Shown in pieces: positions 5,631 to 17,100 of a stretch of DNA of 64,000 nt. Within the stretch, counting starts at the first letter, position 1, and each line of letters starts with the position of its first letter. Source of the DNA: Octopus sinensis (Eukaryota); the NCBI RefSeq assembly GCF_006345805.1, contig NC_043003.1, forward strand, positions 107,508,001 through 107,572,000, written 5' to 3'. The position numbers were made by a program.

Positions 5631-8600
5631 CGTGTGTGTGTGAGAATGAGAGAAGAAACAAAATATCCTTAAAATGATAAGCAATGGAAAGTTGATATCG
5701 ATTGATGGATTGATGGAGATATTTCGGTAACAGTTCATTACACGTGTGTAAGAATGTCTGAGCGAGAGAGGAGAGCATATTATAGCATTCCATGAAGGGT
5801 TTTGTTTGTTTATTTACACTAACCCCACCCCTTGTCTTGATCATTAATTAGACCCATTGATTGTCTTCCAACCTACAACACAACTCATTTGCATACGCGC
5901 AAGTCCTAGGATCGACTACTTACGACTAGCTAGCGCGGACACGCGACTGCGCGTGGGCGCGCATCGGGTTCAGTCTTCGCTAGTAGTATCAAATTTCTTT
6001 TCCATTTCTATAGTGAAAAGGGGCATAGTTTCGGTTGTAGGAAACATCGCCGTGAAAAGATACATTCTGTATTTATAGAAAGGAAACTTGTAATAGTTAT
6101 TTTCAACAACAAAAAATGTAAAAAAAAAAAAGAAGAAATGGATTTCGATTCAAAGAAGTAAAGAAAAGAAATATTTCCTTCTAAACAGAAAACAATTTAT
6201 ACGAAAGTAACACTTTTTAAAGTATTAGTTTCGTATAAAGCCTTTGTTTTTGTTTTGATTTTCTTTTTGTTAATTCCTCACATAATGTCACGCCGAAGAC
6301 AACCAAGCCCCAAAATAATAAGCTCAGACATTATTGATGACGAAAAAATTAAGCAAGAGACATGGACATTTTGTGATCTCTTTCAACAAACTTCTACGAA
6401 TGAAAAAGCAATTACATGGCTGGCGAAATATGAACTTATAAGCAATTCTGTTGTGTGTCCCACTTGCGGGAACCCGTGTACAGTCAACGGTTACCAGAAG
6501 GGTATAGATGGAAAACGATGGAGATGCCCAAAGCATAACTACTGTAGATCAATCCGCAAAGGATCCTTTTTCGAGAATAGCCGCCTGTCGCTGACAACAT
6601 TCATATGGCTTATGTATATGTGGTCAAGGGAATATTTCCATTCTGAGATTGCCCATGAGAGTACCGTAAGTAAGAAATCAACAATTGACCTGTTTTGTCT
6701 CATCCGAGAACTACTAGAACGGTTCCTGGAAGACCACCCGACTGAATTAGGTGCCTACCCACCCGAGATTGGCGGGTTCGATTTACAGTCAGGTGAACCA
6801 AAAGTTGTTGAGATAGATGTGACCACACATTTCAAACCTACACCCAATGAAAAGAAGCATATGAAAAGATTCTGTGTTTTTGGTGGAATCGAACGTGGAA
6901 CTGACAAATGTTTTCTGGTGCCTATTGAGCATCAAAATAAAGACGCTTTCGAAGCTGCAATTATCCGATGGATTTTACCAGGTATGGATAAATATAATCT
7001 GTGGTTTTCTTTTATCTTTGCTATCTTCCAACAGACGCTTACCAGACTCCTTCAAAATATTTGTGAAATCCCTTTTTTATTTATTAGCTAAGACAGAATA
7101 GTGTTTCAAACAATAAAATTTATTTACTTCGCTATGTTGTTGGACAGATTCAAAACGCAAAACGCACAGTAGAAATAACAATTTTATTAAACATGACGAT
7201 TTGTTCACACGCTTTTCCATCCTCACAGCCCCGCCCTCCAGGGGACTTGAGACAACCTGTTTTCTCGCGGGTTTATTTATTTACTCCATTTTGGCTTTTA
7301 ATGACATTTCTTAATATGACATTCTTAATATGCCTCTCGCTCTCAGAAATTACTGATAGAGTTGCGACTGAATTTTTCGTTTATTACCAAATTTAAAATT
7401 ATATTTACTGTAGTCGAAACAATAATAAGCACTTGTGGAGGATCTTTCCACCAGCGACATGTTAGCTAATAAAGAAATATACACTTAGCTTCGGTTGACA
7501 GCAGCTACATAACACGAGAAATTAACCGGACTTTTCAACTTGAAGTGTCAGTTTTTTTTTCTTATATTTTACTCGTTTCATTCATTGGACTGCGGCTGTG
7601 CTGGGGTACTTCTTTGAAGAGTTTAGTCGAACAAATCGACCCAGTACATCGTTTTTTTTTATAATCTAGTACTGATTCTATAGGTCTCTTTTCGACGACC
7701 AGTCTAGTTACGGGGACATAAATAAACCAACACAGTTGTCAAGCGGCTTTGTGGGAAAACAAACACATATATGACTGGTTTACATACAGTTTTAGTCCAC
7801 CAGATTCACTCACAGGGCGGTGGTCTATCCAAGGCTATAGTTGAAAAGGCTTGTCCAAAGTGCTGTGCAGTGATACTGAGCTCGAAACCATGTGATTGCA
7901 ATGAGAGTTTCTTAGCCACACAGCCATGCCTGCACTTATGTCTTGTGAAGAATCCAAAATAGCAAAATTGCATTTCAAAGAAATTGAAGAAATTAAGCAT
8001 CTAACAATAGTTACTATTTAGAAATTTTTTACTCGTTTCTTTCATTAGACTGTAGTCATGCTAGGACACTGCCCTGAAGAATTTTTAGTGAATGAATCGA
8101 CTCCAGTACTTTTTTTTTAAAGCCTGATACTTATTCTATCGATATCTTTTGTCGAACCGCTAAGTTACAGGAACATAAACACATCAACACCGGTTATAAA
8201 ACGGTGGCGGGACACACACTCACACACACACACACACACATATACAGGGTGTGACGTGTAAATTGTCGCCATTTTATATTTTTAATTTTGGGCATTGTTT
8301 TTGGTTTTGTCGACTACACAGTAGGGGCACCGTCCGTGAGAAAAACACCATGACTCAATTCACTTTGCTAGAAACTTGGAAATGACACGCTGTGCTGTTT
8401 GGAATTTGTGCCAGAAGCTCCAATATGAACATTTCAGAGTGTTTAGGTGTCATTCTGAGGACATGTACCAAGAGTGATAAAAATCAAACGTCCAGTCAAC
8501 ATCATGTTGTTTGGAGTGATCACTAGTGGTGGTGACGTTATGTCTCCATCTTCCCACACAACCTCAGATTCAACATAGGGGACTACATCAAGTGCCTGGA

Positions 8601-14132: not shown

Positions 14133-17100
14133 TTTAGAACAGAGCCTACCATTATTCTGTTATTCCTTTTTGAAGAATTCATTTTTGTAGTGTATTTTAA
14201 TCTGTATTCTCTCCTGTTCTCACCTTCTTGTGGCTTGAAAATATGCTCTGGCACCTCATCACCACCATCTTTATCCCATCACTAGTGAGACACCTGTGCT
14301 TGTTCTTCTATGATACTTTAGCCTTTCAATACTTGGCATAAAGCCACCTCCTCTCTCAAATGCATTCTCACTCATTTGAGGCATCTCTTTCTTTTTTCTC
14401 TGTCTTATAAGTTACTTGGTAACCTCATTAGTGCCAGCACCATGAAAAAAGCACCTTGTACACTTTGTAAGGGCATCAAGCCATAGAAGGGCATCAAGCC
14501 ATAGAAATCATACTAGAACTGACATTGGAGCTTGATGCAGCCCTGCAGCTCATTGGATTCTGTTGGCACTCGAGCCCTGTGCTAATAGGGTATTAAGAGC
14601 ACCATCCAAGCGTGATCGTTGCCAGAGCGACTATCTGGCTTCTGTGCTGGTGGCATGTAAAAAACACCATTCGAGCGTGATCGTTACCAGCATCGCCTTA
14701 CTGGCACCTGTACCGGTGGCATGTGTAAAAGATTCGGGTGAGGTCGTTGCCAGTACCGCCTGACTGGCCCCGTGCTGGTGGCACGTAAAAGCACCCACTA
14801 CACTCTCGGAGTGGTTGGCATTAGGAAGGGCATCCAGCTGTAGAAATTCTGCCAGATCAAGATTGAAGTCTGGTGCAGCCATCTGGTTTGCCAGCCCTTG
14901 CTCATTCGTCCAACCCATGCTAGCATGGAAAGCGGACATTAAACGATGATGATGATGTTCAAACCATTGCCAGCATGGAAAATGGACATTAAATGTTGAT
15001 TCAATCATTTTACACCCATTTTTCCATGCTGGCTTGGGTTGACAGTTACATATTGAATGTTTTATTGTGGGATGCCCTTTCTGCAGCTAACACTTACCTG
15101 TTTTCAAGTAAGGGATTTATGTCTTATTATTAGCAAGAGGTTAATATTATATTATCATCTCATAATAACATGACTTCAATCAGTCTGAAAGAATTGTTAG
15201 TTGAAAATGAATGGCAGCAACAAATGCAGTAAATGCAAAGTTAGGTTGTTGTTGTTTAGCTCCAGGTTCCACCTGTTGAAGTAGACATGTAGTTAATGGT
15301 ATTCCAGCTATGATAATCCCATTTTTTTTTCACCTGCATTTGAACTAGTTTATACGATGTGATAAAGAGAGAATTCCTATATGGTCATTTGACCTGCAAG
15401 AAATAACAACCTAGTATCTATCATATCACAACTCACTGTTTAAAAAATAATCCATAGTACATTAATTTACAAAAGAACAAGATGGTCACATCTGGAACAC
15501 TTTTGAGAATAGATCCATTAAACAACATTTTATTAAATATTGAACATTACATAATACAACAAACTTTTAGGGAGTCAAATATCACAGTATTGTCCAAGCT
15601 TTAGTACTTTCTTTTTTTTTCCTTTTACTTGTTTCAGTCATTTGACTGTGGCCATGCTGGAGCACCGCCTTTAGTCGAGAAAATCGACCCCAGGGCTTAT
15701 TCTTTGTAAGCCTAGTACTAATTCTTTCGGTCTCTTTTACATATATATATGACGGGCTTCTTTCAGTTTCCATCTACCAAATCCACTCACAAGGCTTTGG
15801 TTGGCCCGAGGCTATAGTAGAAGACACTTGCCCAAGGTGCCACGCAGTGGGACTGAACCCGGAACCATGTGGTTGGTAAGCAAGCTACTTACCACACAGC
15901 CACTCCTACGCCTTATAAATTAAAAATAAACATCTAATTCCATATATAGAATGCCCTAAATTTAACTATTCTAATTGAGAAGGTCTTGAAGAGACAACAA
16001 ATAGAATGAATGACAGCCAGTTTAAGAGAAATGGTTAAAATGAAGTCTGATTGGGTATACAACACCTTTTTAAAATATTGAAACAGTTTGCTATGCTCAC
16101 ATTTTTAAGCACTTCATTTTAGTCATACATATTTTAATATTTTTTTACCCATTCTTTGTGAAGTGGTAAGTGTTTAGCAAGCAGAATTCATGACCAAGAT
16201 TTGAATCTTCATCATCAGTTTGTCATTTTTGTACTCTAAGAAAATATATCACACTCTCGTTATTGCAACCTTATAATCTATGATTATAAAGATACATTGC
16301 AGTTCTTTTTTTTATAGGTACCCATATTGTGTCTGATATTTGGACTGAACCTCTTCAAATTGACCAGATCCAACAAGGTATATATACTCATGAATATGTA
16401 GATTACAATGATCCAGAAGATACAGAAATCTACATCAGAAATATAGACAGAATGTGGCAGAGAGTAAAAATACATTTTCAAAGAAAACATAAGACATTCT
16501 TATTTCAATCATTTTTAACAGAATTCATGTGGAGATCTCACTTTAAAAATAATGATAAATTTGCTGCTCTAATTTACTGTATCAAACATTTGTATAAAGT
16601 TTAAAATAAAGTTGTTATATTTTTATTTATAAATTAACTTTTAAGTCTAACTCTGTATAGAAGCATAGTTAGTTTCCAGTAGAAGTACAGCTGCTCTTTA
16701 GTAAAACCTTTATCTGTGTGGGGGATATCTGAACTTCTTTATCTCACCTAGATTGAAATGTGCCTGTTAGGCTGCTCCTATATTATCCTCATTTCTTCCT
16801 AATTTAACTTCTAATTACACCCTGAGATGTCCTCACCTTACACTCTACCTTAACTTATCTAGATATAACTTCACCTCTTACCCACAGATTAGTTTATATT
16901 CCATGGTTAGAAATCTTAAATCATCCTATGCTTCTAATGTCTTGAAATCATAAACTTGTTTAACAATACTACATTGCAGCTACTCAGTCTGAACGACAAT
17001 TCTGAATCATTATTACTCTTGAACAGCACAAAAACTATTAGATTCCCTACAATCTTCAATGTCTGCTCATGGCTATTATGTACTCTTAACTTTGTTAAGT

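Follow-up and report, generated by a model that had tools for sequence, protein, structure and literature searches.

A likely family of host genes derived from Merlin/IS1595-type transposases in Octopus

It is well known that transposases, once domesticated, can give rise to new genes. SETMAR, THAP9, PGBD5 and the CENP-B/pogo-derived proteins, for example, are single-copy domesticated transposases of the DDE (Asp-Asp-Glu) type that go back to mariner, P, piggyBac and pogo elements. The octopus lineage, for its part, is known for its unusual genome and transposon biology. In this work, we analysed a stretch of 64,000 nucleotides (nt) from Octopus sinensis (NCBI RefSeq assembly GCF_006345805.1, contig NC_043003.1, positions 107,508,001 to 107,572,000 of the forward strand; hereafter the window), which contains an intron-bearing gene related to the transposases of Merlin/IS1595 elements (gene A, 6285–16604) together with a tandem paralogue of it (gene B). 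A preliminary description of this DNA had proposed that gene A is a host gene co-opted from Merlin. This proposal is supported by the intact open reading frame (ORF), the splice sites, the ratio of nonsynonymous to synonymous substitutions (dN/dS), the lack of terminal inverted repeats (TIRs), the grouping of the closest relatives in one clade and the loss of catalytic motifs. We consider it likely that gene A is a functional Octopus host gene derived from a Merlin/IS1595-type transposase, and that its family, made up of immobilised genes of transposase origin, numbers at least seven paralogues. Gene A would share with the SETMAR, THAP9, PGBD5 and CENP-B class an immobilised ORF that has lost its element ends, contains introns, is under purifying selection and retains a putative module for DNA binding. 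Unlike that class, whose members are single-copy, the Octopus genes would have a Merlin source and form a lineage-specific multigene family subject to birth and death.

Within the Merlin superfamily itself, candidates for domestication have been put forward in the protists Stentor, Symbiodinium and Perkinsela (PMC8101967). As far as the available part of that survey goes, they resemble the Octopus family in that their ORFs are preserved without TIRs or target-site duplications (TSDs), in that the DDE residues are not conserved in some copies, and in that they were amplified by segmental duplication rather than by transposition. Their hosts, however, are ciliates, dinoflagellates and a kinetoplastid, whereas the Octopus family belongs to an animal; in the same part of the survey, domestication candidates are given for protists only, animals appear as counts, and no selection test is presented (PMC8101967). 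The Kolobok-derived genes of Xenopus, in the portion of the source available to us, likewise comprise several paralogous transposase-derived genes in one lineage, but they concern another superfamily and another host (PMC6004289). In the available text of a survey of metazoan transposon-derived transcription factors, which covers O. bimaculoides, the terms IS1595, ISXO2 and Merlin are absent (PMC10027918), and a search of the full-text literature brought to light no animal host gene described as derived from Merlin, subscription journals and supplements lying outside the coverage of that search. Against this background, the locus described here is Merlin/IS1595 by domain and fold, not by its DDE triad; judged by its ends, it does not qualify as a Merlin transposon, and on the features tested it fits the domesticated pattern.

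Gene A lies on the forward strand and is assembled from two stop-to-stop ORFs (6162–7091 and 16290–16604). Exon 1 (6285–6981) starts at the earliest in-frame ATG and has 697 nt, that is, 232 codons plus 1 nt, so that the intron is in phase 1. It encodes N-terminal helices, a putative Zn-ribbon (C58, C61, C81 and H84), a helix-turn-helix region and, of the RNase H-like core, the first half with D178. The donor, GTATGG from 6982, follows directly on exon 1, and the repeat-filled intron (6982–16317; 9336 nt, GT...AG) ends in a long pyrimidine tract and TATAG, the AG of which occupies 16316–16317. Exon 2 (16318–16604) completes the Gly codon at the junction, adds 94 codons for the other half of the core, with D239 and D276, and for the C-terminal helices, and ends with TAA at 16602–16604. 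The junction restores the motif ILPG-THIVSD; aligned with canonical relatives, it coincides exactly with the block of conserved residues that surrounds the second catalytic Asp, and no residue is gained or lost there. Each of these relatives was called from an unannotated contig as a single protein of 300–332 amino acids (aa), presumably encoded by an uninterrupted ORF, whereas the catalytic domain of gene A is split by 9.3 kb of intron. A polyadenylation signal, AATAAA (16605–16610, forward strand), immediately follows the stop codon. On the 5′ side, blastn homology between genes A and B begins 94 nt before the ATG of gene A, and the segment common to both (6191–6284, forward strand) is likely to be a 5′ untranslated region or core promoter.

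The searches were run exon by exon, and full-length analyses were carried out on public proteins, chiefly on P0002, an O. vulgaris protein of 327 aa annotated as ‘ISXO2-like transposase domain-containing’, which differs at 2 of 327 residues from the conceptual product of the window. With tblastn, P0002 aligns with the window at 6285–6983 (233/233 residues) and 16317–16601 (93/95 residues). The ORFs, the splice sites and this match bear out the two-exon, phase-1 GT...AG model of the preliminary description exactly, with its product of 327 codons (232 + 1 + 94). Of the 148 candidates scored in the search with exon 1 (232 aa), 12 reached E ≤ 0.001, and exon 1 is 100% identical to three of these proteins, namely isoforms X3 and X4 of O. 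sinensis LOC115214512 and P0002. Gene A is, accordingly, already annotated in Octopus as an uncharacterised ISXO2-like-domain protein. Exon 2 (94 aa), compared with 1.84 billion representatives, gave 90 matches at E ≤ 0.001 and a single one at E ≤ 1e-30. This best match, P0007, has 72% identity (E 4.5e-37); the others, headed by P0038 with 46%, are fragments or C-terminal ends of Merlin-type proteins of about 320 aa.

Gene A is not alone. The preliminary description had expected a lone gene with a single syntenic orthologue; instead, there are at least seven intact paralogue lineages, 60–80% identical, on several contigs. The named members all come from three Octopus species; besides those that correspond to genes A and B, the searches gave intact proteins of 328–333 aa (P0005, P0006, P0007, P0009 and P0010). 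The contigs that carry paralogues are of chromosome size (117.5, 110.5, 84.7, 84.0 and 68.4 Mb). P0008 is a 260-aa ORF that reads through the intron site of gene A into GM..., which indicates that the intron position is common to P0008 too. Among the annotated and predicted proteins, no pair within the family exceeds 80% identity, so that the annotated proteins give no sign of recent copies. A second tier of matches, at 33–40% identity, consists of canonical Merlin-type proteins, which carry the motifs VEIDES..RKYxRG..SDGW..HTQNIENxW. Longer or fused forms of exon 1 (407–2000 aa) were not found among 677 candidates at E ≤ 1e-5, which is weak evidence. In a tree of 29 rows, the eight family rows form one clade (Shimodaira–Hasegawa-like approximate likelihood ratio test support 100) on a stem of 0.69 substitutions per site. 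The family tips measure 0.07–0.29, compared with 0.28–1.5 for the canonical tips and a median of 0.57 over all 29 rows.

Gene B, which was found by tblastn of the search matches against the window, lies 15 kb downstream of gene A on the same strand. It consists of exon 1 (21100–21807), an intron of 4647 nt (21808–26454) with the same position and phase as that of gene A, and exon 2 (26455–26741), and the donor reads CAG/GTATGG in both genes (the slash marks the exon boundary). With a 1-nt frameshift at about 21142 and two in-frame TGA codons (21342–21344 and 26619–26621), gene B is a pseudogene in this genome; its AATAAA overlaps its stop codon. The O. bimaculoides protein P0004 (LOC106879049), 95.6% identical to gene B exon 1 over 225 aa, is intact (331 aa) and has Arg at both positions at which gene B has a stop, and the two stops would be consistent with CGA-to-TGA changes. 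P0002 and P0004 each lie on a contig of chromosome size and give an indirect indication of orthologues in related species. It had been stated beforehand that every other transposase in the window is frameshifted. Gene B is indeed disabled, by the frameshift and the two TGA codons, but it is no unrelated relic: it is the paralogue of gene A itself, with the same intron. When 126 proteins were searched against the window by tblastn, the matches merged into five intervals, all of them in gene A or gene B.

At the nucleotide level, the homology of the two genes extends over 6191–7016 and 21017–21845 in the region of exon 1 (80% over 833 nt) and over 16186–16653 and 26326–26787 in that of exon 2. 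A further island downstream (16744–16779 and 26872–26907, forward strand) is identical at 29 of 36 positions, and its score was reached by none of 200 shuffles. The first 35 nt and the last ~130 nt of the gene A intron are common to both introns. Repeats that the two introns share were also considered as ancestral intron sequence, but this was rejected, since they do not follow the same order in the two introns and have further copies in other parts of the window. The two genes have diverged less in exon 2 and the ~130 nt of intron upstream of it than in exon 1 (dS 0.245 versus 0.533), and P0004 is 85% identical to exon 2 of gene B as against 95.6% for exon 1; this pattern is suggestive of gene conversion in the exon 2 region of the tandem pair. 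An origin of gene B exon 2 from an intronless copy, considered on account of a tblastn match running 7 residues upstream of the acceptor, was rejected, the extension being translated pyrimidine tract that is homologous between the introns.

The divergence of genes A and B bears on the question of whether gene A is under constraint. By Nei–Gojobori counts made per exon, which compare paralogues rather than orthologues, dN/dS is 0.243 for exon 1 (dS 0.533, dN 0.130) and 0.231 for exon 2 (dS 0.245, dN 0.057). For both exons together it is 0.240 (bootstrap range 0.165–0.350), and none of 1000 replicates reaches 1. Since gene B has evolved as a pseudogene in recent times, the estimate is a conservative one. 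In the protein tree, the tip of gene A (0.11) is as short as that of P0004 (0.12), which implies that the constraint is not limited to the other lineage. In a neutral simulation with substitutions alone, run at half the A–B synonymous distance (d = 0.224 substitutions per site), the ORF was still open in 2 of 20,000 cases. The claim that the ORF was retained under constraint is thus upheld by both approaches.

These values are hard to reconcile with the idea that gene A is a dead, functionless Merlin relic whose ORF survived by chance and whose parts were joined by annotation pipelines. This idea may draw on the death of the neighbouring paralogue and on the aberrant isoforms X3 and X4, one of which is frame-shifted and the other truncated by a gene B stop. 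Apart from dN/dS and the simulation, it would leave unexplained why the O. vulgaris protein is identical at 325 of 327 residues, why seven paralogues are intact and why the splice sites are exact and conserved. We regard it as extremely improbable.

The assignment of the family to Merlin/IS1595 rests in the first place on the Pfam profile DDE_Tnp_IS1595 (PF12762), a test that the preliminary description had suggested. All seven full-length public family proteins, P0002 included, score 30.4–49.2 bits against a gathering cutoff of 27 bits (P0002, 35.2 bits, E 1.6e-8). The family agrees with Merlin/IS1595 transposases in placing PF12762 above threshold and in its domain order, which is putative Zn-ribbon, helix-turn-helix and RNase H-like core. 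Pfam and NCBIfam searches on single exons gave no usable match. An AlphaFold2 model of P0002 (mean predicted local distance difference test score 85.9, predicted template modelling score 0.83) has helices at the N-terminus, a unit of three strands that resembles a zinc ribbon, a bundle of helices and an alpha/beta core. When this model was searched with Foldseek, 25 matches in the PDB were obtained at E ≤ 0.001, of which every one listed is a retroviral integrase, for example the catalytic core of the integrase of human T-lymphotropic virus 2 (template modelling score by target 0.56–0.59, E ~3e-4). The RNase H-like fold is, therefore, predicted to be retained in the family. The family profile, when compared with the sequences in the PDB, produced two matches (E 0.13 and 0.62), both of which were discarded as meaningless. 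Of the ‘IS1595/Merlin DDE fold’ announced in the preliminary description, the fold is upheld by these predictions, whereas the D-D-E triad is not, the third residue being D.

The extent to which the family has departed from canonical Merlin-type proteins was assessed with 19 of the 27 non-family matches, after removal of fragments and short partial sequences (P0011, P0021, P0030 and P0033–P0037). These 19 proteins define 58 alignment columns with at least 80% conservation. All seven family members keep 29 of these columns, mostly in the Zn-ribbon, the helix-turn-helix and the core scaffold, and all seven have lost 13. The residues lost throughout include the Glu beside the first Asp (present in 19/19 canonical proteins), the Y, R and G of RKYxRG, the His of VNH (18/19), which falls within a common 7-residue deletion, and the catalytic Glu (16/19). 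The family thus differs from canonical Merlin in its D-E pair, in RKYxRG and VNH, and in the substitution of the catalytic Glu by D or S; it also differs in a 7-residue insertion before GGFD and in the 7-residue deletion after YTH. The first triad position is D in six of the seven members and G in P0010, the second is D in six and G in P0009, and the third is D in six, S in one (P0007) and E in none. Gene A and P0002 have D178, D239 and D276, with D rather than E as the third residue, and gene A is the only member to have lost the Tyr after the second Asp (19/19 canonical proteins), which is P in gene A. Of the putative zinc ligands, C58, C61 and C81 occur in every family member and in at least 17 of the 19 canonical proteins, while the fourth ligand is H (5/7) or D (2/7) instead of the canonical C. 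Pfam Zn_Tnp_IS1595 had no match on single exons, the sole match being a sub-threshold one to Zn_ribbon_recom (E 0.11); the P0002 model has three short strands followed by helices at the putative Zn-ribbon.

Gene A may, alternatively, have been domesticated and yet remain catalytic. D178, D239 and D276 would then perform cleavage or strand transfer for the host, in the manner of a programmed nuclease or recombinase, with the three triad-replaced paralogues as regulatory or inactive partners. The three acidic residues are present in gene A and in four of the seven members altogether, the RNase H-like core and the C-terminal helices are the best conserved parts, and the predicted fold is intact and resembles integrase catalytic cores. 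Mean pairwise identity within the family is indeed 71–82% in the core, linker and C-terminus as compared with 57–58% in the N-terminus and Zn-ribbon. On the other side, the Glu by the first Asp, RKYxRG, the VNH His and the catalytic Glu are gone from all seven members, in gene A alone the second Asp is no longer followed by Tyr, and every position of the triad can be spared, each in one intact paralogue. It is possible, to judge from their acidic residues, that D-D-D members have kept some nuclease or recombinase activity, but as an account of gene A the catalytic alternative seems to us quite unlikely.

We turn now to the element ends, for which the preliminary description had reported neither a TIR nor an 8-bp TSD around gene A. 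Merlin TIRs measure 24–462 bp and begin with 5′-GG, according to the part of the survey available (PMC8101967). Unlike Merlin elements, gene A has no TIRs or visible TSDs: within flanks of ~600 nt, its best inverted match (score 12.5) is no better than those of shuffled sequences (mean 11.1 ± 1.2) and was reached by 37 of 200 shuffles. For the ~600-nt flanks of gene B, the observed score was reached by 181 of 200 shuffles. None of the 25 longest inverted pairs within 3000–30000 brackets gene A. No 8-bp duplication was seen by eye at the candidate ends of the A/B homology, which is a weak test, as these ends are undefined. Two candidates for ends were rejected, namely the 194-nt inverted pair 19037–19230 and 28012–28205 as ends of a gene B element, since it belongs to a dispersed repeat with four copies in the window, and the AT-rich word ATTTCRAT, found by eye in inverted orientation near both ends of the A/B homology, as a TIR, since it is too weak and not significant.

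The absence of recognisable ends matters most for the possibility that gene A is simply an undecayed copy of an old, low-copy, intron-bearing Merlin lineage that is still, or was until recently, autonomous, its ORFs being kept by transposition. Several of the observations that weigh against a host gene would fit such a lineage. Paralogues lie on at least three different contigs per species set, all of chromosome size, which past transposition could explain. The D-D-D triad is intact in four of seven members, leaving catalysis possible, and the strong conservation of the core, above that of the DNA-binding module, would also suit an enzymatic role that has been preserved. Between active transposon lineages, too, purifying selection is seen. 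Gene B is dead, so individual members of the family are dispensable, and its decay resembles that of an inserted copy. Against a host gene in general, it may be added that neither exon of the window reaches the threshold of DDE_Tnp_IS1595 by itself, because the intron splits the domain. The inverted ATTTCRAT near the A/B homology ends, too, may be set on this side for what it is worth. Finally, Merlin-like proteins are abundant in O. bimaculoides, where 191 such annotated sequences are given in the part of the survey available, so that Merlin is or was active in the lineage (PMC8101967).

Such a lineage is nevertheless difficult to square with the locus itself. There are no significant TIRs, and no TSDs were seen; with its repeat-filled intron of 9.3 kb, the ‘element’ would be ~10.5 kb long; and genes A and B stand in tandem in the same orientation, with homology running beyond any candidate end. 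At the level of the family, no protein pair is more than 80% identical, the canonical invariant residues are lost in all seven members, each triad residue is replaced in one of them, and short tips follow a long stem. We consider this explanation, the main alternative to our own, unlikely.

A host gene family derived from Merlin, which we prefer, may have arisen in the following way. In the ancestor of the family, the transposon ends would have been lost, a phase-1 intron inside the catalytic domain would have been carried along or acquired, and the surroundings of the active site would have undergone a burst of change. The family would then have spread by gene duplication, of which the A/B tandem pair would be one instance, and would later have been kept under purifying selection with occasional gene death, such as that of gene B. 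The proteins probably bind DNA, and would do so through the retained module of Zn-ribbon and helix-turn-helix. The RNase H-like core and the C-terminal helices may serve as a structural or oligomerisation scaffold, transposition having been lost. The paralogues are most divergent in the N-terminal part, the one presumed to bind DNA, an indication that their targets may differ. A role of the family in gene regulation or in the repression of octopus Merlin elements is plausible. It is tempting to go further and to imagine an Octopus-specific Merlin-derived family, expanding and contracting, in which the D-D-D members cut or join DNA for the host, or which as a whole comprises sequence-specific repressors of Merlin, the N-terminal parts tracking different targets; this extended scenario we hold to be rather improbable.

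The intron of gene A had been described beforehand as containing Tc1, maT and RTE insertions. The Tc1 insertion is confirmed: a decayed Tc1-type transposon on the reverse strand (9031–10674) has inverted ends of 138 nt, 97% complementary (9031–9168 and 10537–10674), and Pfam domains DDE_3 (9351–9737) and HTH_Tnp_Tc3_2 (9950–10153), both on the reverse strand and in different frames. For maT and RTE, a Pfam scan that took in 66 of the 87 ORFs of the intron, all but the 21 of the tandem-repeat zone 10988–12580, gave no match, and these two remain unconfirmed by Pfam. The intron also contains GC-rich tandem arrays at 11292–11484, 11978–12141 and 12401–12500, with periods of 62, 46 and 33 nt, which give rise to long spurious ORFs.

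Two annotated isoforms make use of other sequences in the region, and their tails match the window exactly. In isoform X3 (P0003), a frame-shifting cassette exon of 65 nt (13421–13485, forward strand), with AG upstream and a GC donor downstream, is followed by part of gene A exon 2 (16318–16377) out of frame; an internal donor at 16378 then leads to an end in exon 2 of gene B, and the tail of P0003 matches the translation of the 13421–13485 stretch. In isoform X4 (P0001, 287 aa), exon 1 of gene A (6285–6981) is joined to 26455–26621 of gene B, exon 2 of gene A is skipped, and the tail is identical to gene B exon 2 as far as the TGA at which the protein ends. Exon 2 of gene B thus acts as an alternative last exon in both isoforms, which look non-productive.

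A few other features of the window may be mentioned. Upstream of gene A there is a (TA)n microsatellite of ~195 copies (5240–5627; 650 nt upstream of the start codon), which accounts for many inverted-repeat pairs in its vicinity, and an inverted repeat of 205 nt and 97% identity (4745–4949 and 5038–5242). A second inverted repeat, of 299 nt and 93% identity, lies within the intron of gene B (22844–23142 and 23347–23645); both are probably foldback elements or resemble miniature inverted-repeat transposable elements. A dispersed repeat of ~195 nt occurs around gene B in four copies, 86–90% identical and in both orientations (19037–19230, 28012–28205, 29298–29492 and 31290–31486). Far from genes A and B, a 248-aa ORF on the reverse strand (40033–40776; RVT_1, E 6.6e-18) is a retroelement fragment, and at about 50767, again on the reverse strand, a short ORF resembles an exon of a DHHC-type palmitoyltransferase, the neighbouring gene named in the preliminary description.

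If gene A and its relatives are indeed host genes, they would represent the first case of Merlin domestication to be described for an animal. A cephalopod-restricted family of at least seven members, held under constraint and subject to birth and death, would add another superfamily to those from which transposases have been co-opted. The family would also offer a tractable case of transposase rewiring, in which the motifs of the active site were lost and the core scaffold was kept while the DNA-binding part is diversifying.

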